Numbered from the stretch's first letter, positions 17,600-64,000 are shown. The stretch: 64,000 nucleotides of DNA from an archaeon (GCA_002688355.1 NZCT01000024.1:111762-175761), one strand, 5' to 3'. Notes: generated by a model from the letters alone, not told the origin. Program-made: numbers and translations.

Positions 17600-18331
17600 A
17601 TGGAATGGAAAACAAAAATATCAAACTTTAATGGTAAAGATGAAACAGTGAAAGGTTTTGATTTAAATGATTTAATCGGAAAAGTTTCTTTTTCTGAAAT
17701 GATATTTATTTTACTAAAAGGAGAAAAACCTAAAGAAAATGAAATAAAATTAATGGATGCAATTTTAGTTGCTACAGCAGAACATGGAATAAATACTCCT
17801 TCAACATTAAGTGCAAGAGTATCAGCATCAGCAACACATAATCTAATCTCTTCCTTAACTGCAGGAATTTCTTCAATAGGCCAATATCATGGAGGTGCAA
17901 TAGAATCATTAGCACAAATACTACAAGAAAATAATTCAAAATCAGCAAAAGATATTGTACAAGAGTTCACAAGTAAAAATCAAAGACTTCCTGGCTTTGG
18001 TCATAAAATATACGAAACAGATCCAAGAGCAGTAAGATTATTTGCAGTAGCAAACGATCTAGGAATTAATAGCACTTACACAAAATTAACAAAAGAACTT
18101 GAACAAGAACTTGAACAAGTAAAAGGTAAAAAATTATGTATAAACATTGACGGTTGTTTAGCAGCATTAATATCTGAATTAAACTTCAATTGGAAAATTG
18201 CAAATATATTTTTTGTTTTACCAAGAATCTTAGGTCTAACAGCACATATTCAAGAAGAAATAGAAGAAGAGAAACCATATAGAAGACTAAACCAAGAGGA
18301 TATTAAGTATGAGAGTAATAGCAACAGTTGA
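17600..18331 (+). CDS. Short citrate-synthase-family protein (citryl-CoA lyase-like)
   Basis: ILVATAEHGINTPSTLSARVSASATHNLISSLTAGISSIGQYHGGAIE and GFGHKIYETDPRAVRL match the citrate synthase catalytic-domain motifs (GPLHGG and GFGHRVYK..DPR). The 243-aa size matches citryl-CoA lyase or the ACL C-terminal domain rather than a full citrate synthase. Confidence 0.6.
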   Translation: MEWKTKISNFNGKDETVKGFDLNDLIGKVSFSEMIFILLKGEKPKENEIKLMDAILVATAEHGINTPSTLSARVSASATHNLISSLTAGISSIGQYHGGAIESLAQILQENNSKSAKDIVQEFTSKNQRLPGFGHKIYETDPRAVRLFAVANDLGINSTYTKLTKELEQELEQVKGKKLCINIDGCLAALISELNFNWKIANIFFVLPRILGLTAHIQEEIEEEKPYRRLNQEDIKYESNSNS

Positions 18332-19043
18332 AGCAAGAATGGCAGCAACAAGACTTCCAGGAAAAGTCTTGGCAGATATAAAAGGTAAACCTGAATTACA
18401 AATATTTCTAGAAAGAGTAACTAAAGCAAAAAAAATTGATGATATAATCGTTGCAACAACAACAAATCCAAAAGATATAGAAATTGTTAATCTATGTAAA
18501 AAATTAAACGTTAAATATTTTAGAGGTTCTGAAGAAGATGTTCTCTCTCGAGTACTAGCAGCAGCTAAATCTTTAAATGCAGATATAATAGTTGAACTAT
18601 GTGCAGATGATCCTTTCATGGATCCAACAGTAATAGATGCAGCAATTGAACATTTCCTAAATAATGACTTTGACTATATGTCTAATTTTCATCCACTAAC
18701 TTTTCCACCAGGAATAGGTGTACAAATTTTTCCATTAAAAGTTTTAGATGAAATAGATAAGTTAACAAATAATCCGTATGATAGAGAAAATGTAACATGG
18801 TACATATATCACAATAAAGACAAATACAAATGCGGTAATTATCCAGCTCCAAAACATTTAGCAGATCCAAAAACAAAACTAGATTTAGATTATCCAGAAG
18901 ATCTTGAATTTATAAGAAAGGTATTTGATAATTTTGATGATATTCATTTCTCATTAAGAGATGTTTTAGATTTACTAGAAAAAAATCCAGAGTTAAAAGA
19001 GATTAATGCTAACAGATATGTTGGTGATGAAAGATACGAATAA
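18309..19043 (+). CDS. CMP-sugar synthetase / acylneuraminate cytidylyltransferase family (NeuA/PseF/LegF/SpsF-like)
   Basis: MRVIATVEARMAATRLPGKVLADIKGKP matches the N-terminal motif of CTP_transf_3 cytidylyltransferases. The start overlaps the upstream gene. Confidence 0.65.
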   Translation: MRVIATVEARMAATRLPGKVLADIKGKPELQIFLERVTKAKKIDDIIVATTTNPKDIEIVNLCKKLNVKYFRGSEEDVLSRVLAAAKSLNADIIVELCADDPFMDPTVIDAAIEHFLNNDFDYMSNFHPLTFPPGIGVQIFPLKVLDEIDKLTNNPYDRENVTWYIYHNKDKYKCGNYPAPKHLADPKTKLDLDYPEDLEFIRKVFDNFDDIHFSLRDVLDLLEKNPELKEINANRYVGDERYE

Positions 19044-22699: not shown

Positions 22700-24217
22700 A
22701 TGGCTCTCGAAACTTTAACCACAACAAATGAACAAGATAGAATAGTTAAATCTAAAGTACCAATAACACCAACTCTAGAAAAATTACTTAACCCAAATCT
22801 TCACAAAAAAGAGCCTATTTTTACAAGTCCTTTAAAAAAACCAAAAGAAGGGGAAAAAGTTTACGATCTTTCACCAGAACAAATTAAAGCAATTCAAGAA
22901 CTAAGAGGAGCAGTAGTTGATCTACATCCAGGAATGGGTGGCGTTGTTCCCAGTAAACTAATACAAATGATTGAAGATGGAATTCCAGTTACTTCATTAG
23001 ATTTTATGATGACAAAAGGATGTAACTTTGAATGTACATGGTGTTATGCTGGTTCAAGTCCATTTGCTACAGAATTTCTTCCTTTTAATAAACTAGAATC
23101 TATAACTCAAGAAGCTGCAGATATTGGAGTCAGTTTATTTATTCTTACTGGTGGTGAGCCTCTTACATATAAAGATCCTGCTTTAGGAAAAGTAAACCAT
23201 AGAGGAGAACATTTTTTCAAAGTTGTTGAGATGATCAAAAATACATACGAACGACAAGGAAAAGAAGCTAAAATTTTAACATTTGATGATGTAGCTTTAA
23301 TCAATGAAAGGATTGCAGAACAATTTGCACATTACAAAATAGGATTATGTACAAAAGGCGACACGTTACATCCTGAATTACAAGATTATAAAGTAAACCA
23401 AGTCGGAGCCTTTAAAAAAATGGAAAAAGGTAATGAAAATTTAATAAAAGTGGGTTATGGGAAAAACCCTGATCTAAGAAATGTAGTTAATTCTGTTTTT
23501 GACCATACAACTTTTGATGGAATGCCAGATCTACATATGTTAGTCAAAGAAAGAGGATTTGATCATTCAATAGTTCCCATTCATTTTTGTGGAAATGCTG
23601 GGGATGAAGATCAAGAAGCAGGGATTCACTCACCCCACGTCAAAGTTCTATATGATCTTCTTTCTAAAGTTGATGAAAAATATTTTGATGAACACTGGGA
23701 ACCTTGGTCAGCATTTACATATAATAAAACCTGTAATAGAAATTTATCAGGCCTTCATATAAGAGCAAATGGTGATGTAACTTCATGTTCAGAATCTCCT
23801 GGAAGAGATGAAACAGACAGGTATACATTTGGCAATATATTTACAGATGAAAATTTCTCCTTAGAAGAATTAGCTTTTAGTAATCGTCTTGCAAACTATA
23901 GAACAGAATTCGCAGAAGGATCTGGAACATATGTATGTGCACCAGATATTTGTGATTTAAATGCTAACGATCTATGCCGAGGTGGATGTGCAGTAAGATC
24001 AGCATATTCAGGTATTAATTATGAAACAGGTTTAATTGAAGAAGGAACAGATGTTCACAATTACAGCACACATAGAGAAGATCCTTTATGCCCAGCATGG
24101 ACAAAACTTGCATTAACACAAGGCATTCTAAAAGAAGGTTTACTTTCAGCTATTCATGAAAGATTGCTTGAAAAAAGTGAAAAATTAGATATTAAAGATT
24201 TTCCTAATCCTTACTGA
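22700..24217 (+). CDS. Radical SAM protein with C-terminal SPASM/twitch-like Cys-rich domain
   Basis: MMTKGCNFECTWCYAG (CxxxCxxC), then GGEPL. The C-terminal region has seven Cys (TSCSESPG...VCAPDICDLNANDLCRGGCAVRS). Confidence 0.7.
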   Translation: MALETLTTTNEQDRIVKSKVPITPTLEKLLNPNLHKKEPIFTSPLKKPKEGEKVYDLSPEQIKAIQELRGAVVDLHPGMGGVVPSKLIQMIEDGIPVTSLDFMMTKGCNFECTWCYAGSSPFATEFLPFNKLESITQEAADIGVSLFILTGGEPLTYKDPALGKVNHRGEHFFKVVEMIKNTYERQGKEAKILTFDDVALINERIAEQFAHYKIGLCTKGDTLHPELQDYKVNQVGAFKKMEKGNENLIKVGYGKNPDLRNVVNSVFDHTTFDGMPDLHMLVKERGFDHSIVPIHFCGNAGDEDQEAGIHSPHVKVLYDLLSKVDEKYFDEHWEPWSAFTYNKTCNRNLSGLHIRANGDVTSCSESPGRDETDRYTFGNIFTDENFSLEELAFSNRLANYRTEFAEGSGTYVCAPDICDLNANDLCRGGCAVRSAYSGINYETGLIEEGTDVHNYSTHREDPLCPAWTKLALTQGILKEGLLSAIHERLLEKSEKLDIKDFPNPY

Positions 24218-26340
24218 GCAAAAGTAGATGTATGAAAAACATGATCTTCCATTTTAGTTTCATATTTCTCTTCAGAAGATTCAACTTGATAAAATAAATC
24301 GCTTATTCTCATATATTCACTCATTTTCCTTAAAGTAAAATTCAAATTAACATTCTTAAATTGATTAATATTACTGTTCAAAGCTTCAACTTGATCATTA
24401 GGTAAATAAAATTTATAATTAATCTTTCCAGCATATTCGTGTAAATTTTTATGATAAGAATCTCGTTTCCATTTTAGCACATCAAAATCAAATTCATTAT
24501 GCTTTTCTATTTCAATTTTAAATTCCTTTTCAATATCTAAACCACTAAAATTAACTCTTAACATGCTTTCAAATTTAATAATATTATCCACAGCAGTTTC
24601 ATAATCTAAAGAAGGACTTTTCTTAGAAATTAATTCTTTAGCTATCTTTCCTAAGTAAATATCAAATTCATTTGGACAATCAGTTATAGTCTTAAAAGTA
24701 TATTGGAAATTTAACTTGCCAAATCCGCCATTCTTTAACTTTTCAAATTCTTCCTCTTTACTATAATGTTCTATTAATTCTTCTTTTGTATCAAACCATT
24801 CTCCCCTAGAGTCGTTATCAAACTCTTTTAATAATTTTTGAACTTCCTTAGGAGCGTTTTCAATATTTTCCATTACAGCAATTAAAAAATCCATAGGATT
24901 AATATCATAAGATTGAATATATTTTAACAAACCCCTATAGTATTTATAATTCCAAGTAAATTGAACTAACCATTGTAATTTCCTAAAGAAAAACAATTCT
25001 TCTTCTGACATATGTTTAGTCGACTTAACCATTTCTTCATATTCAAAAGATTTATACCCACCGTAAGTACCAAAACAAGTATCTATTAATCTAAACTTAG
25101 TCTTAATACCATTTCTTTCCCTATACTCAGGAAGAGACATCTCAGCTCCATTTAACAACCTACAATGATAAACAATTATCTGTCCAGCATCCATATCCAT
25201 TAACTCTCTTAACGCGTTTAAATGACTCTCCTTAGTCTCAAAAGGCATTCCTAGCACCATTTCAGCATCTGAATCAATACCATTATCATGAAAAAAAGTT
25301 AGTAATTCCTTATATGCATCTTGACTAATATTATCTCTTCTAATTTCCTTTAAGGTTTCTAAATTCATAGATTGTAATGACGCATCAACACTTGCTAGCT
25401 CCCCCAACATAGTTGCAATTTTCTTTATCCCATCACTTTTATTCTTAGCCCAAAATGTTGTAACTTTCCTCGGGTAACTGTGTTTATCACTTAATTCCCT
25501 CATTATCTTAGAAAATTCATAATCCCTCTCACTAAAGATTCCAAAATTAGAATCAGAAATACACAATATGTTAGTATTCTTTGTTTCTTCTACTTTTTTA
25601 GCAATATAATAAAACTCTTCTTTTATTCTATCAAATGGAAACATAGCCATCTTCTGATAATCTAAATCTCCCCATACGCAAAAAGTACAAGGATATGGAC
25701 ATCCTCTATTTGTTTCTAAATTAGGAATTAAATTATCCTCAAAAAATTCATCCATTACTCCAGTTAAATACGGAGAAGGTATAACACTAAGATCTTTAAT
25801 TACAGGAGTTTCTTCTCCTCTAATAACTTCATCTTTTTCTTTATCATAATATGCAGTATCTTTTATTACACTTTTTTTCATAAGATTAATGTCTTTATTA
25901 CACTCAAAATATTTCTCTAAAAGATTAACAAATCCAGGTTCTCCTTTATGAATTACATAAAAATCTAAATTATTTTGTTTTTGTAAATAATCTTTTATTA
26001 AATCTGGTCTTATGTGTATATTCGGTCCACCCATTACAGTCATTATTTCAGGATGTTTACTTTTTACATATTTTAACAAATTAATATTTAAATTCTCATT
26101 CCAAGCATAATTACTCAATCCAAGAATATCAGGAGGATTTTTCTCAATCTCTTCTAATAATTTATCTGGGTATTTAAATAATTTAACTGTTAGTTTATCG
26201 CCATAAATTTTATTCAGATATGCTTTAATATATCCAATATTAATTGGAAACATAAAAGGACCTTTACCAACATAATTATGTACAAGATCAGCAAAATAAA
26301 TTACAGTATTTTCTTTTTTAGATTGATTATTCATATTCAA
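24211..26340 (-). CDS. B12-binding domain / radical SAM protein (class B), 709 aa with a long C-terminal extension
   Basis: N-terminal B12-binding-like region (ILGLSNYAWN...TVMGGPNIHI), radical SAM motif TNRGCPYPCTFCVWG, and ~250 aa of additional C-terminal sequence. Confidence 0.7.
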   Translation of the reverse strand: MNMNNQSKKENTVIYFADLVHNYVGKGPFMFPINIGYIKAYLNKIYGDKLTVKLFKYPDKLLEEIEKNPPDILGLSNYAWNENLNINLLKYVKSKHPEIMTVMGGPNIHIRPDLIKDYLQKQNNLDFYVIHKGEPGFVNLLEKYFECNKDINLMKKSVIKDTAYYDKEKDEVIRGEETPVIKDLSVIPSPYLTGVMDEFFEDNLIPNLETNRGCPYPCTFCVWGDLDYQKMAMFPFDRIKEEFYYIAKKVEETKNTNILCISDSNFGIFSERDYEFSKIMRELSDKHSYPRKVTTFWAKNKSDGIKKIATMLGELASVDASLQSMNLETLKEIRRDNISQDAYKELLTFFHDNGIDSDAEMVLGMPFETKESHLNALRELMDMDAGQIIVYHCRLLNGAEMSLPEYRERNGIKTKFRLIDTCFGTYGGYKSFEYEEMVKSTKHMSEEELFFFRKLQWLVQFTWNYKYYRGLLKYIQSYDINPMDFLIAVMENIENAPKEVQKLLKEFDNDSRGEWFDTKEELIEHYSKEEEFEKLKNGGFGKLNFQYTFKTITDCPNEFDIYLGKIAKELISKKSPSLDYETAVDNIIKFESMLRVNFSGLDIEKEFKIEIEKHNEFDFDVLKWKRDSYHKNLHEYAGKINYKFYLPNDQVEALNSNINQFKNVNLNFTLRKMSEYMRISDLFYQVESSEEKYETKMEDHVFHTSTFAQ

Positions 26341-29403: not shown

Positions 29404-30663
29404 TTATTTGTAAGTTAACCCTCCAACTTTTACTTCATCTTTAAATTTTTTCAATAATTCTCTTAACTGATCTTCATTAAGGTTACTATGATCAATATTA
29501 ACATAATACTCCCCGCCTTTACCAACTTGAAAATATTTACTCCAATCAGAGTTTTCTGGTTTCATAATTTGTATACCATATTTTTCAGGATCTTCCCACA
29601 AAGGAGTACTTGGATAAGGTGTTAAAATATAAGCATCAGCATATTCCAAATTTAAACTTCTAGCAAAATTAATTGTATCTATAGCCGTCTCCCAAGTTTC
29701 TCCAGGCAAACCAATAATAAAAAATCCTTTAACTTTAATACCTGCTTTATGACACATTTCAACACCTTTTCTTTGTATATCCACTGTCATATACTTCTCC
29801 ATTTTTTTTAATACTTCATCATTTCCACTTTCCAATCCTAAACTTACAATATCGCAACCAGCATTTCTTATACTATAACATAGTTCTTGTGTCAATAAAT
29901 TAGCTCTCGTAGTACATCTCCAAGTGATATCTTTTTTAGGGAAATTTTCTGTAATCAGATTACATAGTTTTAAAACCCTATCAAATTTAAATGTGAAAAT
30001 ATCATCTCCAAAATAAAATCCCCTTATATCAAATTTATCATATAACAATCTCATCTCTTTAATAATATTCTCTGGGCTTCTTGCTCTCCATTTTTTAATT
30101 TTAGCAGATCCACAATAAACACAACTAAAGACACATCCTCTTGAGGTAACCATAACAACAGCCTTCTTACCATTTAAATCCATATCATATTTTCCCATGT
30201 TAAGATTATCATAATCTGGGAAGGGCAGTGCATCTAAATCTTCAATAGGTTTAGAAATAATAAGTTTAGTTTCATCACCTCCCAAAATTTTTTTAATAGC
30301 TTCTTCTCCATCGCCAACAACTAAATGATCAAAAGTTTCGTTACTAGTTTTTTCAGTAGGCATATCTGTAATATGATTACCTCCTGCAATTAATTTTATA
30401 TTTGGATACAATTCTCTTATTTTTTTAGCTAGTTTTATACAATCAAAATAATTTGGTGTTGAAACACTAAAACAAACATAATCATAATTATTCTTTAAAT
30501 TTTCAAATAAATATTCTTCATTATCATGATTTAAATCAATTAACTTAGAATTATAACCTAATTTTTTACAATAAGAATCCAATAAAGCTAATCCTAATGG
30601 CAATCTATCTCCTTTTTTATCTAAAAACTTATCTTCAGGATTAACAAATAAAATTGATTTCAT
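29404..30663 (-). CDS. B12-binding domain / radical SAM protein (class B), immediately downstream of pepM
   Basis: N-terminal B12-like domain ([11 protein letters not shown]) and [14 protein letters not shown] (CxxxCxxC). Its stop abuts the next ORF and its start overlaps the pepM fusion gene by 4 bp. Confidence 0.75.
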
Positions 30664-31979
30664 TTTTCTTTTATCATCCCATTCCCATCAGGGATTAAAT
30701 TAATTACTTGTTTTATTGGCATACACAAATCTTCAACTTCATGTGCCCTTTCATTTCTTAAAATAGATTCTGAAACTTTAACCATTGCTGGATACGCTGA
30801 CCTAAGTAAATGATTTGCATAGATTACCATATTAATTCCGTTATCAGCGAGTTCTTTTTCTGTTATATGTGAATATGTTGAAGGCACAACAACCAATGGA
30901 ACTTTATTTTCAAATTCTTTATACTTTTGACAAAATTCTTTAATTTCATCAAAGCTCTTTTCCTTACTATGTATCATTATAGCATCAGCTCCAGCTTCAA
31001 TATATGCCTTAGCTCTCCTTAACGCATCATCCATACCTTTCTTTAGAATCAGACTTTCAATTCTTGCTATAATCATAAAATCTTCTGTTACTTGTGCTTG
31101 TTTACCAAATTTTATTTTATTTGAAAAATCTTCTATTGTATCTTGAGTCTGCTCTACATCAGTTCCATATAAAGAATTTTTCTTTGAGCCAATTTTATCT
31201 TCTATTATAACAGCAGAAATTCCTAATCTCTCCAAAGATTTAACTGTAAAAATAAAATGTTCTGCTAATCCTCCACTATCACCATCTACAACTATTGGTT
31301 TTGTAGTAACTTCCAAAATCTGTTCAATAGTATTTATCCTTGATGTAACGTCAACAGTTGCAGTGTCTGGTTTTCCTTTTGATGTTGAATCAGTTAAACT
31401 GCTTTCCCATATTCCATCAAATTCTCTTAGCTCTCCATTATCTAAAGTAATATTAGTTTTTTCAGCTATTAAACCAGTTAAACCATTATGAGCTTCTAAA
31501 ATTCTTACAATTGGTTTTGCAGCCAATAATCTTCTTAATTTGTTTTTTCTAAGTTCAGGAGTAGTTCCCATTTCCATCATATTTTGTATTAAATCTGTTG
31601 TAGAAACATCTCTTGTGTATTCAGGTTCGATTAATTTTCCACCCCATTCTTTCATTGCTTCAACAATATCATCTCTTTTACCTTTTTGAATTCCAGTCCT
31701 CCAATCCGTACCGTGAACCATGAAATCTGCTTTTAATTTTCTAACATTAGGAACATAATCCCATGTTTCTTGAGGAATAACTTCCTTAACACCTTTTAAA
31801 TTTTCTACAACAACTTTTCTTTGTTCAAAAGTTAAAAAAGGAAGCCTCTTATAATTCGCAATAGCTTTATCTGTAAGTAAACCGACAGTTACATCTCCTA
31901 ATTTTCTCGCTTCTTTAATTATATTAAGATGACCATGATGAACTGAATCACCACTCATTGGAACATATACAATTGTCAT
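30660..31979 (-). CDS. Cytidylyltransferase-phosphoenolpyruvate phosphomutase fusion (Fom1-like CyTase-PepM)
   Basis: N-terminal [21 protein letters not shown] (HxGH nucleotidyltransferase motif, GCT/TagD-like). From ~residue 135: [27 protein letters not shown] and [16 protein letters not shown], which are PEP mutase/isocitrate-lyase superfamily signatures including the EDK motif. Confidence 0.75.
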
Positions 31980-50965: not shown

Positions 50966-52093
50966 ATGAAAATTGCCCATATATGTCCATTCTACAAACC
51001 ATCTATAGGTGGAGTAGAACAAGTTGTAGAAGAATTAGGTAAAAGACAAATCTCAAAAGGAAACGAAGTTCATGTCTTTACTTCAGATTGGGATAAAAAC
51101 ACTAGGATTAAAAAAAAATACGAGCTTATAGATGGAATACACGTACATAGATCTTATCATTTTTTTAAAGTTGCTAATTTCGCAAGTTTTTGGCCATCTG
51201 TTTTTCTAAAACTATACAAACAAAAATTTGACATCATTCATACACATGTATTTGGTCATCTTCATGTTTTCCTTGCGTCGTTAGTTGGAAAATTAACAAA
51301 TACAAAATTAGTACACACAACACATTGTCCATGGACTAATATAAATAGATCTTTCTTAGGAGAATTATTAATTAAATTAACATACAGCACTTTCAGTAGT
51401 TTAGCTTTAAACTGGAATAATAAAATTATAGCAATAACGCCTTGGGAATTAAAATTCATTAAAAAATATACTAAAACACCAATAGAAGTAATCCCAAATG
51501 GTGTGGATCAATTATTATACAAACAAATTAAAGATAATAATTTCAAAAAAGAACATAACGTAAAAGATAAACTAGTTTTATTCTTTGGAAGATTTAACAT
51601 TACAAAAGGTCCTGATAAACTAGTTATAGTAGCAAAAGAAATTCTAAAAGAAAGAAAAGATATTGATTTTATTTTTGTAGGTCCAGATGAAGGGATTAAA
51701 GATAAAGTTATCTCTCTAGCCAAAGGTGTAAAAAAAATACAAATCTTAGCTCCAATAAGAGATAGAAAAAAAGTAGCAGAAATGTATCAAGCAGCAGATG
51801 TTTTCGCTATGCCATCATTTAGAGAAGGTCTTCCACTAACTTTATTTGAAGCCATGGCATCTCAAGTACCAGTAATAGCTTCTCCAGTAAATGGAATACC
51901 TTATGAAATGAAAGATGATTACAATGGTTTCTTAGTAAAATATAATGATCTAAAAACTTTAAAAGAAAAAATCATAGCAGTTCTAGATAATAAAACTCTA
52001 TCAAATAAATTTAGAAAAAATAATAAAATCACAGCAGAAAAATATAATTGGGATATTATCGAGGATAAAACAAATAAAATTTATCAAAACTAA
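50966..52093 (+). CDS. Glycosyltransferase family 4
   Basis: MKIAHICPFYKPSIGGVEQVV... and C-terminal PSFREGLPLTLFEAMASQVPVIAS. Confidence 0.7.
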   Translation: MKIAHICPFYKPSIGGVEQVVEELGKRQISKGNEVHVFTSDWDKNTRIKKKYELIDGIHVHRSYHFFKVANFASFWPSVFLKLYKQKFDIIHTHVFGHLHVFLASLVGKLTNTKLVHTTHCPWTNINRSFLGELLIKLTYSTFSSLALNWNNKIIAITPWELKFIKKYTKTPIEVIPNGVDQLLYKQIKDNNFKKEHNVKDKLVLFFGRFNITKGPDKLVIVAKEILKERKDIDFIFVGPDEGIKDKVISLAKGVKKIQILAPIRDRKKVAEMYQAADVFAMPSFREGLPLTLFEAMASQVPVIASPVNGIPYEMKDDYNGFLVKYNDLKTLKEKIIAVLDNKTLSNKFRKNNKITAEKYNWDIIEDKTNKIYQN

Positions 52094-52815
52094 ACTAATC
52101 CTTTCTTTTTAATTTCCCAATAATCAAAAGGTCTTTTCAAATATAAATGTTTACATTTAACATTAGTATCTAAATAAAATTTAACCCCTTCTTTAGCTAA
52201 ATCAAAACCTAACCATCTATCATCCCATGAATCTATCTTCTCATCATATCTAAATTTTATTTTCTCCATTACTTTCTTACTTAAAAAAACACAACCCATA
52301 CCAGAAAATGCTATCTCAATTAATTTATCATTCCAAGTTTCCTCATCATTCAAATACCTAACATCTCCCCAATGTCCTTGATTTTTATTCATAAAGGCCC
52401 ATGCAAAAGGCATTACTTTATTTTCTCCATTAGGCAATTGATGATGTCCAAAGTACAAACCAGAAATTGCATCTTTCCCTCTAAAAAGTAATTTTTCTAA
52501 AACATCTTTAGGAACTATAATATCTTGATCTAAAACTAACAAATAATCAAAATTATTACTTAGCATATATTCTCTTAATTTATTATGAGCTTCAATAACT
52601 CTTGCTCTCATCTTCTCTAAATATGGTATTCTTCTAACATTTACATCTAAAGACTTTATTTTATTAAAGAAATTTTCTTCTTTTGAATTATCTACAAGTA
52701 AAATTTCATAGTTCTTGTAACTTAAATTTCTTATCCTCTCTAAGAACTCGTCAAAACAATATTCATATAAATTACATACTGGAACTCCAATTAAAACTTT
52801 AGGTGTACTTTCCAT
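52090..52815 (-). CDS. Glycosyltransferase family 2-like (GT-A) protein
   Basis: LIGVPVCNLYEYCFDEFLERIRNLSYKNYEILLVDNS...LVLDQD. A GT-A N-terminal pattern with DxD. Confidence 0.45.
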   Translation of the reverse strand: MESTPKVLIGVPVCNLYEYCFDEFLERIRNLSYKNYEILLVDNSKEENFFNKIKSLDVNVRRIPYLEKMRARVIEAHNKLREYMLSNNFDYLLVLDQDIIVPKDVLEKLLFRGKDAISGLYFGHHQLPNGENKVMPFAWAFMNKNQGHWGDVRYLNDEETWNDKLIEIAFSGMGCVFLSKKVMEKIKFRYDEKIDSWDDRWLGFDLAKEGVKFYLDTNVKCKHLYLKRPFDYWEIKKKGLV

Positions 52816-56521: not shown

Positions 56522-56668
56522 TGAACACACCTCCATGTGTTTTCCCACGTAGGGATTCGATTTTTATTATTTATTAACATTAGCCAGATAGTATTAACCT
56601 AACTCCTATGTTATCAAGTTAAAATAAAATCTGATTTATAAACATTTCTCTACTAAAACATATATGAA

Positions 56669-56720
56669 TGCCTTAATTCCCTTAAATTTTAACGAATTAA
56701 GCCTTAATACCCTTAAATTT
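56669..56720. repeat. Two copies of a 21-bp direct repeat (GCCTTAATTCCCTTAAATTTT / GCCTTAATACCCTTAAATTTA), 31 bp apart, in the promoter region of the S-layer-like gene
   Basis: Read directly at 56669-56689 and 56700-56720. The region is AT-rich with TTTAAAT-like cores, suggesting TATA/BRE-like elements or a regulator binding site. Confidence 0.45.
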
Positions 56721-56774
56721 ACATCAGGAAAGAGCATAATCACCACTTGAAAATATTGAATATTTTTTATCATT

Positions 56775-57209
56775 TTATCGTCTTTGATAACACAAATTTA
56801 AGTCTACTTCTATGTTAGTAGATAAAGGTTGTGTTGAGGCAGCAATTCTCTCTCTACACGTTCCTCTTTTCAAACTATATGGTTCGAATTCATAGTTTAT
56901 ATTATCTTCAAGGCTATTATCAAGTATTTTAGTTATTTTTTCCTTTAATTCCTCACAAGAACCACAATTTCCATTACCAATCTCATCACAATTAAGAATT
57001 TCATCTTTTATACTAACTCTATTACACAACGTTGTTTTTAAAACAGAATTTCTCAAATTATTTGCCTTTACTTCTAAAATTCTATCAGCGTCGCTGTTAT
57101 CACTAGAATTTATTTTCAAATATAAAAATAATACAAATATTAACACTAATAAAACAACTATAATAACTAACCCAAAAGATTCTATCTGTCCTTTTTTTAG
57201 TTGAACCAT
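56775..57209 (-). CDS. Archaeal type IV pilin-like protein (class III signal peptide)
   Basis: MVQLKKGQIESFGLVIIVVLLVLIFVLFLYL: a KG|Q prepilin-peptidase-type site followed by a hydrophobic helix. The C-terminal region has Cys pairs. Confidence 0.6.
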   Translation of the reverse strand: MVQLKKGQIESFGLVIIVVLLVLIFVLFLYLKINSSDNSDADRILEVKANNLRNSVLKTTLCNRVSIKDEILNCDEIGNGNCGSCEELKEKITKILDNSLEDNINYEFEPYSLKRGTCRERIAASTQPLSTNIEVDLNLCYQRR

Positions 57210-57673
57210 TTAATCTCCAATACACCAGATTTATATTCTTTTAACCCTGGGTAATACAATGAAATAGGTGTTGTTAAAATATTAACATTTTCTTTATTAC
57301 CATTATCATCATACAAAACAAATTCATTACAATCGGGATAGTTACTTGCATCACACACACCCTCGCTGTTAAGTGGATAAATTTCCCTAATTCTTATCTC
57401 CATAAAACCTAATTTTTCTAATTTTAGATTAACTAATTTACTAGTATCAATACTATTTTCTTCTTGTCCTAAGTTACTATAAACTACATTAGGATCATTT
57501 GGTAAAGTGCTTAACAAATTTAAAACTCTATTTCTCTCGAATTCATTTCCCAAATCCTCGACGCTAGCTATGTTATATCTATAAAAAATAGTTATACTTA
57601 ATATCAAAATAATACTAAATACAATTAAGACAATAATAGTTTCATTAATCTGCATTATTCCTTTTTTATTCAT
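57197..57673 (-). CDS. Archaeal type IV pilin-like protein (class III signal peptide)
   Basis: MNKKGIMQINETIIVLIVFSIILILSITIFY. Confidence 0.5.
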   Translation of the reverse strand: MNKKGIMQINETIIVLIVFSIILILSITIFYRYNIASVEDLGNEFERNRVLNLLSTLPNDPNVVYSNLGQEENSIDTSKLVNLKLEKLGFMEIRIREIYPLNSEGVCDASNYPDCNEFVLYDDNGNKENVNILTTPISLYYPGLKEYKSGVLEIKWFN

Positions 57674-57679
57674 TTTTTC

Positions 57680-58543
57680 TTAAAAAACGCCAACACAACC
57701 TTGTCCAATTAATCTTGTATTTTCCTCGTCTAAATCTTTAGCTATTTCATAATCTAAATTACTTTGTAAATTATTAATATAATCAATTACCAAATTATAA
57801 TTGCAACTAACTCTATTAATAACATTAATTTTACTTTTATAGACGTTACCAACATTATTTGTTTCTTCTTTTATTTTATCTAACAAACAAGAATAATCAT
57901 CTCCAAAGATAGCACCATATAATAATTCTCTACCAACATAAATTTTCTCTTCACCATTAACGATTACAGTTCCTTGATTAATATCTCCATTAACCTTCAC
58001 ACCTTTATTATCAAAACCACTTGCATCTAAAAATATTAATTTTCCATCATTTTTTAAATTACTAGATCTTATAACTGAAAACTTCTTCCTTATATCTTCG
58101 GGCATATTTTCTAATAGTTCTGAACTTAATGTACCAAAATCTTCAACAAAATAATACTTAGCATCATCTGGGATTATATAATAAAAACTTGAAATCTTAA
58201 AAGGTAATTTATATGGTTCATACCAAATTAATATTTTTTTATCTAGTTGCCTAGGTGAAAATATAATATTCTTCGTCTTAACTTCCCTTTCTTCTGCATT
58301 TAATTTTCCACATCTACTTGTAATTTTTACAGGCAAATTTAACGTATCAAAAGTCTTAAACGAACTTGCTTGTAAAGCTGTTAATGTATTATCTAAATTA
58401 TTAATTATTTCAGTATTAGTTTTACTCTCTTGAAAATCTTTATATTTAATTGCAAAACTAACAAAGAAAAATAAAAATAATGCTCCAACCACGACGATAA
58501 AAATCCAATTAAACTGAAATTGCCCTTTTTTCATTTTATTCAA
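57680..58543 (-). CDS. Archaeal type IV pilin-like protein (class III signal peptide)
   Basis: MNKMKKGQFQFNWIFIVVVGALFLFFFVSFAI. Confidence 0.6.
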   Translation of the reverse strand: MNKMKKGQFQFNWIFIVVVGALFLFFFVSFAIKYKDFQESKTNTEIINNLDNTLTALQASSFKTFDTLNLPVKITSRCGKLNAEEREVKTKNIIFSPRQLDKKILIWYEPYKLPFKISSFYYIIPDDAKYYFVEDFGTLSSELLENMPEDIRKKFSVIRSSNLKNDGKLIFLDASGFDNKGVKVNGDINQGTVIVNGEEKIYVGRELLYGAIFGDDYSCLLDKIKEETNNVGNVYKSKINVINRVSCNYNLVIDYINNLQSNLDYEIAKDLDEENTRLIGQGCVGVF

Positions 58544-59048
58544 CTTTACTTATCTCAACAAAATTCTCTCCATCAAGAAACTTACTTTCTAAAACAAAAC
58601 TAAATGCACCATTTATTATCCTAAAACATAATGGATTTTCACTAACTTTTAAACCATTAACATCAAAAGAATATTTATCTTTAAACGGAAGCAAGACAAC
58701 ATTATCATTTATATTTTCCAATACAATTTTTTCATCATCATTTAAATTAGTTAAATCTAAACTTTCATCTTTATTTATCACACAAATTTTACTAACGTCT
58801 TCTGGTAAAGCCAAGGGTTTCCTACTTGATCCTTTAGAATATTCTATCAAACTTCCAGGACTTTTATAAAAAATATCATTGACTTCTTTATCTAATTTAT
58901 TCTTAAAGTCAATTAACTTAGCTTCTTCACCCACATCTAAAAATTTTGAAATCATGTTAAATCCAAATATAAAAACAAACCCAACTACAACAATAATAAG
59001 AATATAAACAAAAACTTGTTGGATCATTCCTCTTTTACTTTTAAACAT
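58536..59048 (-). CDS. Archaeal type IV pilin-like protein (class III signal peptide)
   Basis: MFKSKRGMIQQVFVYILIIVVVGFVFIFGF. Confidence 0.5.
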   Translation of the reverse strand: MFKSKRGMIQQVFVYILIIVVVGFVFIFGFNMISKFLDVGEEAKLIDFKNKLDKEVNDIFYKSPGSLIEYSKGSSRKPLALPEDVSKICVINKDESLDLTNLNDDEKIVLENINDNVVLLPFKDKYSFDVNGLKVSENPLCFRIINGAFSFVLESKFLDGENFVEISKVE

Positions 59049-59123: not shown

Positions 59124-59735
59124 CTATAACGTATCAGAAGATACATCAAAAACATTGTATTTTATTTTTAATTTCTTTAAATCTTTAATTAAATCATTAC
59201 TTCTCTCAATTGGGATTATAAAAACACCTCTAGATATCTTTTTACCATTACTCTTTTCTATAATACCTTTACTTATGTAAGTTTTATTTTTCCTTTTTTG
59301 TTTACTACCATATAATTTCCTCCAAAGTCTAACTTTATCTTTAAATTCTCCTTTAAATTCAACTGTAAATAAAGAATAATTATTTCCTCTAATTTTTTCT
59401 TTAAATGAAGAATATAAAACTAAACCATTGCCAACTATAGATCTTTTTAAATCAGGAAAATCATCTAATTTCCCACTAATAACTCTTATTTGGTTCTTTA
59501 CATTTAAAGGTTTCCAATATTTTAAATATTTAGCTGACTGATAAAATTCATCAGTTATTTTATTAATTTTATCTTCAATATTTACCCCACTTTCGATAAA
59601 AATATCAACATCACTTTCTTTTGTTGCTTCTCCCCTAACAACACTACCAAATAAAAATATTCTATCAATTTCCTTATTATCTAAATTATACAACAAATAA
59701 GATACAAAATCATAAGCAAAACTAACTAATTTCAA
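59124..59735 (-). CDS. Minimal nucleotidyltransferase (Pol-beta superfamily, MNT-like)
   Basis: RIFLFGSVVRGEATKESDVDIFIE matches the GS-x9-11-DxD NTase signature. Confidence 0.6.
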   Translation of the reverse strand: MKLVSFAYDFVSYLLYNLDNKEIDRIFLFGSVVRGEATKESDVDIFIESGVNIEDKINKITDEFYQSAKYLKYWKPLNVKNQIRVISGKLDDFPDLKRSIVGNGLVLYSSFKEKIRGNNYSLFTVEFKGEFKDKVRLWRKLYGSKQKRKNKTYISKGIIEKSNGKKISRGVFIIPIERSNDLIKDLKKLKIKYNVFDVSSDTL

Positions 59736-60126
59736 TTTTAACTCCTAAACTTTCAATCAAATCTTTAAATTCATAAAGATAGTTTAATGTATTATCAATT
59801 AACTCCAATGGTTGTTTCTTTCCATAGCATAATATATTTCTTTTTTCTTCTATTCTAAACAACAAATCAAGAATTTTCTCTTTTCCTTCAAAATCAAAAT
59901 CTAATTTTTCTTTAACTTTGTTCTTAGATTTAAACCATTCATGTTTTAATAAATAGTCCACCTTTAAAATTCCTTTTTCATGTAAATACAACTCAAGAAT
60001 ATTTACTGCAACTAATGAAACATTAAATCCTACTGTTGTCTGCTTTTCTTCAATACCTTTATCAATAGCCCATTGAATAGCAGAAAAGCCTTCCTTAATT
60101 ATTCTTATGTGATTTTCACTTAACAT
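59722..60126 (-). CDS. Small helical protein, putative HEPN-like partner of the adjacent NTase
   Basis: 134 aa, immediately upstream of the MNT-like gene with a 14-bp overlap, which is the canonical HEPN/MNT gene order. A Rx4-6H motif was not confidently identified. Confidence 0.35.
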   Translation of the reverse strand: MLSENHIRIIKEGFSAIQWAIDKGIEEKQTTVGFNVSLVAVNILELYLHEKGILKVDYLLKHEWFKSKNKVKEKLDFDFEGKEKILDLLFRIEEKRNILCYGKKQPLELIDNTLNYLYEFKDLIESLGVKIEIS

Positions 60127-60202: not shown

Positions 60203-63200
60203 TTAAAGCTTAGGATAAACACTTAAAACATTAGAAGTTTGTCCAGTAAATTCATGTTTACATAACACATGGAACACTTCATTATCATCTATTACTTGAC
60301 CATGTGTTATCATATCATTAGAAGTTAACTCTACACCATCATCAAAACTAAATTCTTTATTATCGTTACTAAATCTACAAGTTGCTTTCTCATCTGTTCT
60401 AATATTTAATATACCTCCAGATGAAGTATAAATAGCATTTACTGTAGGTATTAAACCAGTATTAACTTCTACTTCTAATAATTTTTCATCAAAATTACCA
60501 GCTAAATCTCTACACCACGTATATATATCATAACTTCCAGATTGCAACGGTAAAGATTGTGTATGTTTAACATCATCTGTAACTTCAAATTTAAACCTAT
60601 TTGGGTCTAAAAATTTAGTAAAACTATATTCACAGCTTGCCTTTCCATTCTCAGCACCTTCACTAGTCTCTAACTCTAAAATAACATCTTCAGCATAAAC
60701 TAATCCATTAGGTTTCGCAGAGTCTATCTTTAGTCCCTTAGTTCCTCTTAAATTTAAACTAGTACTCTCACTATTAATATTTCCCGCTAAATCCTTACAT
60801 CTAAAGAAGAATGTATTATCTTTATTATCTTCTAAATCTTCCAACTTTGCAGAACATGCAAATTGATTATTTCCTGTTCTTCCCTGTAAGCACGTTGTAT
60901 TAAAACCCATTAAATCATAATTCTTATCACTTGCAGAGAATCTACAACCACCTTGAGCTAATACTGGTTCATTTGTAAATACCAAAATATCTGTTTTATT
61001 CAATCCTTTAGGGATAAATGAATTATCATTAATACTAAAACCTTCTATTACTGGAGGTTGTGGATCAGGACCAGTGTCAACTTCGAATTTAATAAAAAAT
61101 GGCGCTTCTTTTTTATTTCCATTGTCATCTTTACATTTAACATAATAAATATTTTCTCTTCCGGCATATGCCAATATTTGATTATCATCAATTTGAATTT
61201 CTGTCCCTTCACTTCCTGGTGGAGATGCAGGTATATTTGCAGCATTAATAGTCATGATATGTTCTTTCTTAAGTCTAGTATCCTCAAATACTTTCATCTG
61301 ATCATATTCTAAACTTGGTGAATTATCGATTACGCATGTTGCAAATTCATTTGTTTCAACCCCAATTTTAATATTTGCAAATGGATCTAACTTTTCTTTA
61401 AACTCATAACCTTCAAAAGCACCTAATCTTGAAGGGAAAATAAAATCATTCTCCGTTTTTGGATCTACTGGTAAAAGCTTGATTGTCGGAAAAATTATAT
61501 CATTTTCATCTACCCATATACATGTTTCATTACCAACAAAAAATTCATTCTTTAATTCACATGCACGTCCTAAACTCTCACATTTATATTTTGTACATTC
61601 ATTAAAATCATTGCATCTTTCACAATTTTTTCCACCATCAGGCGGAACCCAAGCATTACATGTATATTCATAAGTTATTGTAGCATCATCAGTTCCAAAG
61701 TAATTCAAAATTAATATTAATGCCGCAACACCTATAACAGCAACTGTCGCTATAGCTGCTATTGAAGCAGGAGTACTTAATGTTGCTACTGAAGTACCTT
61801 TAACTGCCGCTGCAGTACCACCAGTAGCAAATATATCAACAGTTCCAAAACTCAAAACAGCGCCTAGAGTTCCAAATGACAAGGATCCTCCAAGGAAAAT
61901 AGCTGAAAAAGCTATTGCTCCTCCTGCAGTACCAAGTAAAATATTTGCCGCTGTTCTACCACTATCTGGTTTATCAGAATCTACAAAACTAGCAAAAGCT
62001 AAATCTAAATTATATAATTGAAAATACAAACTACCATTTAAAGGTTCTTCAACTTTATTATTAAATGGATATATTGGTAAATTAACTCCTCTAATAGATA
62101 TAATATTTCCATTTGTTTCTATAACACTAGGTTCACCATCCAATCGATCATCAGGTCCAAAAGCAGTAAATCCATTTCCCTTATCACCTAAAACATTGTA
62201 GTTAAATCCACAATCACCTAAACTTCTACAAAAATTTTGCAATCCTTCAATATACTCAGGATTTGTACAATCAGAATTTGATTGTTTTTCATAGCTAATA
62301 CTAAAAGGACCATTATACCAATATTCCTTACATGTCCAAACTCCATTCTCTCCAAAGTTCCTCTCACAACTATTTCCACTTAAATCTCCTTCAGGAACAG
62401 CTGGGCTACAAACTTTTATTGCATCATTCCAAAAACATTTTCCGAAAGCAGCTTCACCACAAGCATTTTTTCTACATAACTGTTTTTTACCACATTCAAA
62501 TCTTTCATCGTCTTTCAAATCTGAACATTCTCCAATTGCAGTTCTTGCTTCTTCTAATTCCTCGCCACTCAAACTGCAAGTTCCATCATCTTGAACATTA
62601 AGGCTCAAACACTCATCTGCATTATTAGGTTGACACTTAGCAGAACTATAATCAAAACTCAATCCACTTACACTTTTAGGGATAACTCCCTGTGCACATA
62701 TTTCATTTCTATTTTCTTGACAAGTTTCAACCTTAACTTTACCATTGAAACAACTTCTTTTATAATGCTCAGAACCAACTAAATCATTTCCTTTTCCAGT
62801 TACACCTTCATATTCACACCATTCTTCCCCATTAGCTCTAAAATCTCTTCCACTTAAATCATCTTCCCAAAATAAATTAGTATCACTAGTTTCAAGATCT
62901 TTACAACTTAAATCTCCACACCAAAATTTTAATTTATCATCTGAAACAGGAACACCATCTGGAATTCCTGTACAAATACTTCCTTTGCTAAAGTCACAAT
63001 TTCCACAAGTCAAACTTTCAACATTATTTGAATTAGCATTACAACTATCACTTGGAGAAACTCTCTTACCATCTGTCCTATAATTTGTACCATAAATATT
63101 TTCAGGATTGTTATCTGAATCGAACCAATAAACTTTTTCTTTAAAACAACCAGTATGGTGTTTTTCAGTTACTTGACACCCATATTCAGAAAAACTACAT

Positions 63201-63871
63201 AAACCATTAGGTTTAAACTCACCATTTTTACTAGAGCATTCTGCTGCTGTAGCAAAAGAACATTCATTTGGTAAAACACAACATCCTGTATTTAAACTTC
63301 TTGATTCAGATAAACAAGCATTTTCAGTAGGTACAGAAGCATCAAAAACAGTACTTAGCCTTAAGCTTCCATAATCTTTTATAGCACTTGCACATTTTGC
63401 TTGTGTTATAAAAGCGCTTCCTGTTGGTAAAGCACAACACCCTTTTTGGCAAACTTGAATAGTTTCTTTTGTACCTACATTAAACTGTCCACCTTGATCT
63501 AAACATACGCCTTTTAATGTATTTGAATTACATACTCCATCAACAATACAAACACCAGGTTTACAATCTTCAGTTTGTTCACAAGTTGTTCCACTTGGTT
63601 GTCCAGCTGTTAAATCACAATTATTAGAACTAGTATAAACACAACTTTCTCCTTTATATTCACTTTCTTGTTTAGTTCTTTGACAACAAACATTTAAACC
63701 AGTATTTTCACTAGTCCCTTGATATCCTACAAAATCTTCACTATATTCATATTCTTGAAGTTCATTAGAAGCACTTACAGGGCTTAACAAATGAATACTA
63801 AACACACTAGAAATAACTACACTAATTAAAAAAATTGCAATTACCTTTAAAATATTTTCACTTCTTTTCAT
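60203..63871 (-). CDS. Giant (1222 aa) cysteine-rich secreted/membrane protein with mid-protein TM cluster and C-terminal tandem repeat domains
   Basis: N-terminal signal/anchor MKRSENILKVIAIFLISVVISSVFSIHLLSPVSA. It is followed by ~600 aa containing ~70 Cys. A Gly/Ala-rich hydrophobic block of ~85 aa follows (ILLGTAGGAIAFSAIFLGGSLSFGTLGAV...VAVIGVAALILILNYF). The ~500-aa C-terminal region carries repeated motifs: CKDDNGN, CRFS...FRCKDLAGN, WCRDLAGN and CRFS...CKHEF. Confidence 0.5.
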   Translation of the reverse strand: MKRSENILKVIAIFLISVVISSVFSIHLLSPVSASNELQEYEYSEDFVGYQGTSENTGLNVCCQRTKQESEYKGESCVYTSSNNCDLTAGQPSGTTCEQTEDCKPGVCIVDGVCNSNTLKGVCLDQGGQFNVGTKETIQVCQKGCCALPTGSAFITQAKCASAIKDYGSLRLSTVFDASVPTENACLSESRSLNTGCCVLPNECSFATAAECSSKNGEFKPNGLCSFSEYGCQVTEKHHTGCFKEKVYWFDSDNNPENIYGTNYRTDGKRVSPSDSCNANSNNVESLTCGNCDFSKGSICTGIPDGVPVSDDKLKFWCGDLSCKDLETSDTNLFWEDDLSGRDFRANGEEWCEYEGVTGKGNDLVGSEHYKRSCFNGKVKVETCQENRNEICAQGVIPKSVSGLSFDYSSAKCQPNNADECLSLNVQDDGTCSLSGEELEEARTAIGECSDLKDDERFECGKKQLCRKNACGEAAFGKCFWNDAIKVCSPAVPEGDLSGNSCERNFGENGVWTCKEYWYNGPFSISYEKQSNSDCTNPEYIEGLQNFCRSLGDCGFNYNVLGDKGNGFTAFGPDDRLDGEPSVIETNGNIISIRGVNLPIYPFNNKVEEPLNGSLYFQLYNLDLAFASFVDSDKPDSGRTAANILLGTAGGAIAFSAIFLGGSLSFGTLGAVLSFGTVDIFATGGTAAAVKGTSVATLSTPASIAAIATVAVIGVAALILILNYFGTDDATITYEYTCNAWVPPDGGKNCERCNDFNECTKYKCESLGRACELKNEFFVGNETCIWVDENDIIFPTIKLLPVDPKTENDFIFPSRLGAFEGYEFKEKLDPFANIKIGVETNEFATCVIDNSPSLEYDQMKVFEDTRLKKEHIMTINAANIPASPPGSEGTEIQIDDNQILAYAGRENIYYVKCKDDNGNKKEAPFFIKFEVDTGPDPQPPVIEGFSINDNSFIPKGLNKTDILVFTNEPVLAQGGCRFSASDKNYDLMGFNTTCLQGRTGNNQFACSAKLEDLEDNKDNTFFFRCKDLAGNINSESTSLNLRGTKGLKIDSAKPNGLVYAEDVILELETSEGAENGKASCEYSFTKFLDPNRFKFEVTDDVKHTQSLPLQSGSYDIYTWCRDLAGNFDEKLLEVEVNTGLIPTVNAIYTSSGGILNIRTDEKATCRFSNDNKEFSFDDGVELTSNDMITHGQVIDDNEVFHVLCKHEFTGQTSNVLSVYPKL

Positions 63872-64000
63872 TCTTCAACAAAACTCCTTGTAGCATATTG
63901 GAATGAATAAGGATTATCTCTTAAATTTAAGATATACACTTTACTACCCCTCACAGCTTGTCTTTCTATCTCTACCTCACCTCTATTTCTTAACATGTAA

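Follow-up and report, generated by a model that had tools for sequence, protein, structure and literature searches.

The window analysed here is a 64,000-nucleotide stretch of DNA from an archaeon (GCA_002688355.1 NZCT01000024.1:111762-175761), which is AT-rich from end to end with a GC content of 22–35%. Close to its far end, at 60203..63871 (-), lies an uninterrupted open reading frame (ORF) with an ATG start that encodes 1222 amino acids (aa), exactly where a previous inspection of the bare DNA (the sequence-only reading) had placed it. The product, called the large protein below, consists of a putative signal peptide, an acidic linker, a Cys-rich ectodomain (the N-domain), a Gly/Ala-rich hydrophobic block, a seven-Cys knot and four predicted immunoglobulin (Ig)-like domains (Table 1), and its gene stands among genes for five small pilin-like proteins and an S-layer-like protein. 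The large protein contains 62 Cys residues: 45 in residues 62–554, seven in residues 738–784 and ten in the C-terminal part. Direct counting bears out the Cys-dense N-terminal part described by the sequence-only reading, whose figure of about 70 Cys for that domain was an overcount. Among 67 homologues, 49 of the 62 Cys are kept in at least 90% of the sequences.

Table 1. Features of the large protein and of the genes around it; coordinates are those of the window, and residues are numbered from the start of the large protein.
Feature	Residues	Coordinates (strand)	Remarks
Predicted signal peptide, Sec-type	1-34	63770..63871 (-)	KR n-region, hydrophobic core, V32-S33-A34
Acidic linker	35-60	63692..63769 (-)	Poorly conserved; predicted local distance difference test (pLDDT) <50 at model residues 1-22, predicted disordered
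Cys-rich ectodomain (N-domain)	61-562	62186..63691 (-)	45 Cys, 37 kept in >=80% of homologues
Juxtamembrane segment	563-640	61952..62185 (-)	Weakly conserved; predicted helix before block, model residues 580-594
Gly/Ala-rich hydrophobic block	641-725	61697..61951 (-)	Two predicted helices flank low-confidence G/A/S/T loop
7-Cys knot	738-796	61484..61660 (-)	Directly after second helix; most conserved part, 49% identity
Predicted Ig-like domain 1	797-934	61070..61483 (-)	C846...C913 (CKDDNGN)
Predicted Ig-like domain 2	938-1044	60740..61060 (-)	C976 (CRFS)...C1025 (CKDLAGN), plus C994, C1006
Predicted Ig-like domain 3	1045-1138	60458..60739 (-)	C1080...C1120 (CRDLAGN); weak Big_13 match
Predicted Ig-like domain 4	1139-1222	60206..60457 (-)	C1165 (CRFS)...C1204 (CKHEF)
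Pilin-like partner gene, 3' end		63868..64000 (-)	Upstream of the large-protein gene, cut by window edge; ...YMLRNRGEVEIERQ...FVEE (stop)
Inserted two-gene cassette		59124..60126 (-)	134-aa protein (no family match) and 203-aa nucleotidyltransferase
Four small pilin-like genes p170, p287, p158, p144 (sizes in aa)		56775..59048 (-)	N-terminal [KR][KR]G and hydrophobic helix
S-layer-like protein, 758 aa		54272..56548 (-)	PF05124 S_layer_C, E 2.7e-12; GTG start
Two small predicted single-pass membrane proteins, 183 and 218 aa		52985..54189 (-)	After S-layer-like gene; no family match

A search of 5.8 billion proteins returned 68 relatives of the large protein, 67 of which are full-length homologues. 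The relatives are mostly 1100–1450 aa long, align collinearly along as much as 100% of the query and are 25–59% identical; all are annotated as hypothetical, come from metagenome-assembled genomes (MAGs) of Nanoarchaeota, Woesearchaeota and Pacearchaeota from groundwater, lakes and the ocean, and include no well-characterised full-length homologue. Homology is collinear over the full length and takes in the WFDSCGNxE motif, the seven-Cys knot after the second helix and the four Ig-like domains. An alignment of 36 family sequences holds 69 invariant columns, mostly Cys. Mean pairwise identity is highest in the knot (Table 1), followed by 38% in the N-domain, 31–35% in each Ig-like domain and 17% in the block region. 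The N-domain alone gave 1093 matches with an expect value (E) of 0.001 or below, 788 of them at E ≤ 1e-10, in a filter-free HMMER search of 1.84 billion representative proteins; in the best 150 of these 1093 matches the domain lies near the N-terminus of proteins that are mostly 1100–1400 aa long, the shorter ones being probably fragments. With each GTDB species represented by one genome, a scan identified 306 loci encoding a relative, and all of the 80 loci listed with their taxonomy belong to Woese-, Pace- or Nanoarchaeota MAGs. The literature searched describes neither the family nor the 255-aa partner and gene cluster discussed below. As judged from these comparisons, the large protein is a member of a large, previously undescribed family of fixed architecture, which is apparently restricted to a single clade, the Woese-/Pacearchaeota-type DPANN archaea.

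This conservation also bears on the integrity of the ORF. The sequence-only reading had noted that the hydrophobic block might stem from a frameshift or an assembly join, in which case the ORF would be chimeric. The same layout is found in all full-length homologues: the order of signal peptide, Cys-rich domain, block, knot and four Ig-like domains recurs in the 67 sequences, which come from many independent assemblies, and again in the 150 listed representative matches, mostly of about 1100–1400 aa. A 792-aa Tara protein that is identical to residues 431–1222 likewise spans the block, although it may derive from the same assembly. Because the architecture is conserved, an artefact is refuted for practical purposes, and we give it next to no credence.

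The N-terminus shows a Kyte–Doolittle peak at residues 3–34, which the sequence-only reading took for a signal anchor. Since V32-S33-A34 closes the hydrophobic stretch and V-x-A directly precedes the first conserved CC in the family consensus, the stretch looks like a cleavable Sec signal peptide, and an anchor is less likely. It is not of the class III type that marks type IV pilins and that is displayed by the five small neighbours. The mature protein (residues 36–1222) was modelled by AlphaFold2 using the 67-sequence alignment, with a mean pLDDT of 81.6; confidence is low only in the acidic linker, a short loop and model residues 614–692, which form the interior of the block. Potential N-glycosylation sites (sequons) are depleted in the large protein, with four present and 13.5 ± 3.2 in composition-matched shuffles. 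The S-layer-like neighbour has eight sequons in 758 aa, and the first 12 family members inspected have 3–10 each.

The N-domain begins with small tandem hairpin–helix modules of the pattern GCC...C-x-F-T-x-x-x-C, of which modules 3 and 4 match each other with 92.8% probability and modules 2 and 4 with 64% in profile comparison by hhalign. The modules are followed by a larger mixed part that contains the invariant motifs WFDSxxNxE, G-S-x-H-Y and SLGDCG. Modelled alone (residues 58–600), the domain reaches a pLDDT of 86.3 and a predicted template modelling score of 0.67. It has no match in Pfam or NCBIfam, none to PDB sequences by profile search, and none at E ≤ 0.001 when its model is compared by Foldseek with the viral predicted structures of BFVD. 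The model is therefore that of a candidate new fold, for which neither the PDB nor the BFVD library yielded a relative. The motif C-x-S-L-G-x-x-C occurs on both sides of the block, as CRSLGDCG (62207–62230) and CESLGRAC (61559–61582), both highly conserved. A module duplicated across the block (548–555 and 764–771) was considered on the basis of this motif and rejected, as hhalign assigned it a probability of only 7.9%.

Nine residues of the N-domain (D251, S252, N255, E257, W351, D363, S367, D553 and N559) are invariant. Such a set of residues in a domain that is otherwise 38% identical is what would be expected if the N-domain motifs formed a ligand-, metal- or glycan-binding site, or a catalytic one, acting on envelope glycans or S-layer subunits, so that the large protein would be an extracytoplasmic receptor or enzyme. 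The neighbourhood rich in glycan-biosynthesis genes and the LysM insert found in one family member, both described below, point the same way. However, no similarity to an enzyme or binding fold emerged from the Pfam, NCBIfam, PDB and BFVD searches, and no catalytic residue set was identified from sequence; we regard a receptor or enzyme as improbable.

The hydrophobic Gly/Ala-rich block in the middle of the protein, as seen by the sequence-only reading, is confirmed. Its 12 Gly and 19 Ala residues account for 36% of the block, compared with 14% for the whole protein, it contains many small-xxx-small motifs, and its only charged residues are D679 and K691. Hydropathy peaks at residues ~641–665 and 694–728, and the AlphaFold2 model has helices at residues ~637–659 and ~704–724. 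The segment between G562 and C738, which are both invariant, exists in every member and measures 131–237 aa in the 36 aligned sequences, with a conserved hydrophobic helix at each end and a highly variable middle. Across the family, this middle ranges from ~22 to 286 aa between the helices and from fully hydrophobic to hydrophilic: some members have a hydrophilic or Ala-rich helical loop of 100–130 aa, and in close relatives the middle is wholly G/A/S/T-rich and uncharged. A hydropathy count ranges from 0 to 5 segments, with two being the commonest number (27 of 67 members). In one homologue, P0021, the loop carries a Cys-rich insert with a LysM domain (residues 776–820, E = 2.6e-07) and extra hydrophobic stretches alongside, an arrangement pointing to four spans in this protein, with the loop outside. 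The insert itself (residues ~640–900) gives a hint of glycan binding.

Regarding topology, the sequence-only reading had offered domains on both faces of the membrane as an alternative. This is unlikely, as a signal peptide lies ahead of the block and the region after it is Cys-rich, with the seven-Cys knot and a Cys pair in each Ig-like domain. Because of the Sec signal peptide, the 37 well-conserved Cys before the block and the 17 conserved Cys after it, both large parts of the protein are best placed outside the cell, which implies an even number of membrane spans, two or four. Lys and Arg are sparser at the loop ends (about 0.5 per 15 aa) than in the outer flanks (1.2–1.9), so there is no positive-inside signal. 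We hold it as firm that the large protein, as predicted from its sequence and model, is an exported, disulfide-rich integral membrane protein.

The composition of the block (36% Gly and Ala, two charges in 85 aa, many small-xxx-small motifs) could also be that of a viral-type fusion peptide or a glycine-zipper pore, by which the cell would merge or connect with a host membrane. Class I fusion peptides have a similar composition, and a loop free of a positive-inside signal would agree with such a role. Nevertheless, the BFVD search yielded no viral glycoprotein, no three-domain fold match to the fusexins and class II fusogens (Fsx1, HAP2) was found, and heptad repeats and a separate C-terminal anchor are both absent. 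Moreover, the middle is hydrophilic or coiled-coil-like in many homologues, and its Gly/Ala character is not a trait of the family. Membrane fusion or cell bridging by the block is highly unlikely.

All seven Cys of the knot are kept in 97–99% of homologues. The four repeats that follow are mutually homologous, with hhalign probabilities of 94.5–98.3% for every pair, and each carries a Cys pair (the first two Cys listed for each domain in Table 1) that is kept in 94–99% of the 67 homologues. The second Cys of each pair falls in the C(K/R)D(L)AGN motif. The repeats with their terminal motifs and upstream Cys are those that the sequence-only reading had recognised; the repeat region, however, begins at about residue 797 (61483) and not at about residue 913 (61135). 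Where the pairs lie in the domains suggests that each may form a disulfide within its own domain.

The model of residues 797–1222 has a pLDDT of mostly 85–95, and the tandem repeats conform at the fold level to Ig-like β-sandwiches. A Foldseek search of the full model against the PDB gave 424 matches at E ≤ 0.001, headed by PTP-δ Ig-Fn, DSCAM, titin, SiiE and the S-layer protein Sap, and including the adhesin GhpA; these are only generic tandem arrays of Ig or fibronectin type III domains, and they most likely fall on the C-terminal Ig-like region of the model. Pfam returned only Big_13 (PF19077), for residues 1103–1138, at 17.1 bits (E = 0.0078) and below the gathering threshold of 27, NCBIfam returned nothing, and the search of PDB sequences with the family profile gave only a weak alignment to the SiiE BIg motif in domain 3, in agreement with the view of the sequence-only reading that the protein fits no recognised surface-protein family. 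Among the homologues, P0021 just reaches the Big_13 threshold with 27.4 bits, and six of the 68 listed relatives carry a precomputed PF19077 match. Like Big_13/SiiE-type repeats, the four C-terminal domains combine a β-sandwich with the strand motif ...Y-x-C-x-D-x-A-G-N...; unlike them, they score below threshold, have a conserved Cys pair per domain and make up only one third of the protein. They also resemble HYR-like repeats. At the fold level, the C-terminal third as modelled belongs with the Ig-like surface repeats of bacteria and archaea. Taken region by region, structure prediction and fold searching gave Ig-like arrays for the C-terminus and no library relative for the N-domain.

The closest genetic link of the large protein is to the gene directly upstream. 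The window reaches no more than 129 nt beyond the start of the large-protein gene, and its last 133 bases encode the C-terminus of this partner, whose TGA stop codon overlaps the ATG of the large-protein gene (ATGA). The overlap gives a firm basis for predicting translational coupling of the two genes. Homologues of the partner are about 255 aa long, and their N-terminus, (K/R)(G/A)-Q-x-T-x-F-x-I followed by a hydrophobic helix, has the class III (prepilin-type) pattern. The partner has no credible Pfam or NCBIfam match and none to PDB sequences by profile search; its family counts at least 369 members, all hypothetical and devoid of Pfam domains, and the named ones all come from the same lineages as the large protein. 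The partner gene is adjacent to the large-protein gene in 80 of 85 loci, and in 70 of these 80 the large-protein gene follows within 700 nt. In 17 of the 85 loci the large-protein gene, identified by its WFDSCGNxE motif, is present in two or three tandem copies. For example, in loci L003 (14911–17970) and L004 (14324–18187) the 255-aa partner directly precedes the first copy, and L004 has another partner gene directly upstream of the second copy; the copies in L003 have diverged in the core motif (YFDSCGNPE and WFDSCSNRE). A second copy may also exist beside the gene studied here, close as it is to the end of the window. In these two loci and in L005, all of them from distant relatives, a PCNA gene lies upstream of the partner and large-protein pair, with a further ORF between them in L004 and L005. 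This position, which the window does not reach, points to a stable chromosomal place for the cluster.

Downstream, all genes of the cluster lie on one strand in the window, and their order recurs down to relatives of about 30% identity, often with PCNA upstream. We assessed this conservation by plain tblastn with the window proteins in 14 loci that have at least 9 kb of downstream sequence. The four small pilin-like genes encode products that begin with KRG-M, KKG-Q, KKG-I and KKG-Q and continue into a hydrophobic helix, and none matches Pfam or NCBIfam; the genes recur on the same strand in 10 (p170), 11 (p287), 9 (p158) and 3 (p144) of the 14 loci. Next comes the gene for the S-layer-like protein, which 10 of the 14 loci also carry downstream, in the same orientation. 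This protein matches not only S_layer_C but also TIGR01564 S_layer_MJ, with 29.5 bits at a cutoff of 25, placing it in the Methanococcales-type S-layer family; the large protein matches neither model. No hydrophobic or transmembrane segment of the S-layer-like protein rises above threshold. A non-coding gap of 226 nt (56549–56774) precedes the gene and could hold its own promoter. The genes for the 183- and 218-aa membrane proteins recur downstream on the same strand in 7–9 of 14 loci (the 218-aa gene in nine), and the two proteins may be factors for S-layer assembly or anchoring. The tie to adjacent pilus-type genes that the sequence-only reading had surmised is therefore well founded, with a class III gene next to the large-protein gene in most loci and downstream genes co-directional in 10–11 of 14.

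Between the large-protein gene and the small pilin-like genes lies a cassette that was rejected as part of the system, being absent from this place in the closest relative (L001), while L003 has a similar nucleotidyltransferase elsewhere in the cluster (18026–18963) with an unrelated small partner. Its nucleotidyltransferase is of the Polbeta/NTP_transf_2 type and resembles PADLOC PDC-S09/PDC-M05A. The other window ORFs scanned, 20 at 6.8–52.1 kb and a GT2 gene at 52090–52815, mostly serve glycan and envelope biosynthesis; they include glycosyltransferases, sugar epimerases, aminotransferases, a phosphoenolpyruvate (PEP) mutase fusion, B12-radical-SAM enzymes and a polysaccharide deacetylase. 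The cytidylyltransferase–PEP mutase fusion is encoded at 30660–31979 (-), within a glycan island at 1–52 kb, and three radical-SAM proteins are encoded at 6853–8292 and 24211–26340, with a B12-binding domain, and at 22700–24217, without one. PEP mutase is the hallmark enzyme of phosphonate biosynthesis, and the gene content of the island suggests phosphonate-decorated surface glycans in a small-genome archaeon.

We compared the large protein and its locus with three further known systems. First, archaeal type IV pilus loci often contain about five minor-pilin-like genes together with large signal-peptide proteins and S-layer-like, Ig-rich proteins, and one survey proposes that the Ig-rich proteins locally adapt the S-layer (PMC4858521; bioRxiv 10.64898/2026.04.22.720090). 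Like the adhesins and S-layer-like proteins of those loci, the large protein appears to be secreted, has several Ig-like folds and conserved Cys, and is encoded beside about five class III genes and an S-layer-like gene. Unlike them, it showed no DUF2341 or PilY-like domain and no sequence relation to the arCOGs named there, its predicted anchor is a central hairpin and not a C-terminal helix, no relative of its N-domain turned up in the fold libraries searched, and the locus is without an ATPase or TadC.

Second, the SlaB protein of the Sulfolobales is a membrane-anchored β-sandwich stalk with a C-terminal anchor and a coiled coil, encoded near the S-layer gene. The large protein is similarly predicted to be a membrane-anchored β-sandwich stalk encoded near an S-layer gene, and it could hold a lattice protein that has no anchor of its own. 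It differs from SlaB in the central hairpin and the additional 500-aa Cys-rich domain, and no sequence or fold relation was detected. In place of a C-terminal transmembrane helix and coiled coil it has an Ig-like C-terminus, the signal peptide and block 641–725 being its only hydrophobic parts, and its tightest genetic link is to a pilin-like gene and not to the S-layer gene.

Lastly, the locus recalls the priming complex of PilY1 and minor pilins, in that one large non-pilin gene accompanies four or five minor-pilin-like genes apart from the motor genes. In contrast to PilY1, the large protein is integral to the membrane as predicted, shows no homology and has no DUF2341, von Willebrand factor A (vWA) or β-propeller domain.

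The sequence-only reading had suggested that the large protein could be an adhesin or sheath component, and it may be one. In its most developed form, this alternative gives a type-IV-pilus-like fibre the large protein as its adhesin: a minor-pilin priming or tip complex would be made up of the five pilin-like proteins, with the large protein as their PilY1-like non-pilin partner and with the Cys-rich domain or the Ig-like stalk presented to a host or surface, and the hairpin might even enter the helical core of the fibre. The tight pairing with five class III-type genes speaks for it, as do the loci (17 of 85) in which the pair is duplicated in tandem, the glycan-binding LysM insert of P0021 and the presence of the giant bacterial adhesins SiiE and GhpA among the Foldseek matches. 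An episymbiotic life, which most DPANN archaea lead, would also suit an adhesin. In clade 1 of the archaeal pilus loci, about five minor pilins with large signal-peptide adhesins are the rule (PMC4858521). On the other hand, PilY1-type proteins are not integral membrane proteins, as the large protein seems to be; DUF2341 or another adhesin domain is missing from it; and no linked ATPase or platform genes were seen in the scans made. The ectodomains are evenly and strongly conserved over hundreds of species, whereas host-binding adhesins usually diversify. Even purifying selection along the length fits conserved self-partners better than variable host ligands, and we consider the adhesin, the main rival to the reading preferred below, somewhat unlikely.

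A bolder possibility is that the Cys-rich domain and the block form, with the pilin-like partners, a membrane-active fusogen or bridge-forming pore that would join the cell's membrane to a host's, or, less radically, that the hairpin imitates a pilin helix so that the integral membrane protein can be incorporated into a type-IV-like fibre. If true, either would be a mechanism as yet undescribed across the domains of life; we regard this possibility as very doubtful.

The reading that we favour, tentatively, is that the large protein is a membrane-embedded non-pilin subunit of a lineage-specific, pilin-like envelope complex of the Woesearchaeales/Pacearchaeales type. The protein would be exported by Sec, lose its signal peptide and be retained in the membrane solely by the central uncharged, Gly/Ala-rich helical hairpin of two or four spans. 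The disulfide-knotted N-domain of about 500 aa and the seven-Cys knot would form a membrane-proximal base outside the cell, from which the stalk of four disulfide-stapled Ig-like domains would project outward, toward the S-layer-like lattice; its length, estimated from the typical size of an Ig domain, would be about 15 nm. Made in step with the 255-aa pilin-like protein through the overlapping stop and start codons, the large protein probably assembles with it and with the four other pilin-like proteins, whose hydrophobic helices at the N-terminus might be packed against the hairpin of small residues. Acting as a strut, as an anchor or as the base of a surface structure, such an assembly would connect the membrane with the S-layer-like protein, which has no anchor of its own. 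What is inferred here, beyond signal-peptide cleavage and topology, is that the protein physically associates with the pilin-like proteins and the S-layer, and that its role is structural.

Several observations weigh against this envelope-complex reading. Tandem duplication of the gene pair is commoner for adhesins that diversify than for a lone structural anchor. The one feature that marks the five small proteins as pilin-like is the N-terminal motif, [KR][KR]G or [KR]A. A type-IV-filament ATPase or platform gene was found neither among the subset of window ORFs scanned nor in the four loci with precomputed Pfam calls, and a regular expression for the secretion-ATPase motif, a crude search run without a positive control, found none in 1.48 Mb of loci and window. 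Regarding topology, the scarcity of Lys and Arg at the loop ends gives no backing to a simple cytoplasmic loop, and the LysM and Cys-rich insert of P0021 lies inside that very loop. Finally, archaeal envelope proteins that are exposed are not usually depleted in sequons.

Few uncultured archaea are as widespread as the Woesearchaeota and Pacearchaeota; to our knowledge it is not understood how these tiny cells build their envelope and make contact with partner cells. The locus represents a clade-wide signature module that comprises a protein of 1100–1400 aa, a coupled pilin-like partner, four more pilin-like proteins and an anchorless S-layer-like protein, the last being the only member with a name or domain annotation. 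Although the general category of a pilin- and S-layer-associated envelope locus is already known, the large protein adds an N-domain without library relatives, a central hairpin anchor and an unannotated obligate partner. The module offers targets for cryo-electron tomography, metaproteomics and multimer modelling, among them an N-domain that is confidently modelled and has no relative in the PDB. If it is a host-contact apparatus, it would open up the cell biology of the group; should it prove to be a simple strut of the envelope, it would still provide a useful marker family.

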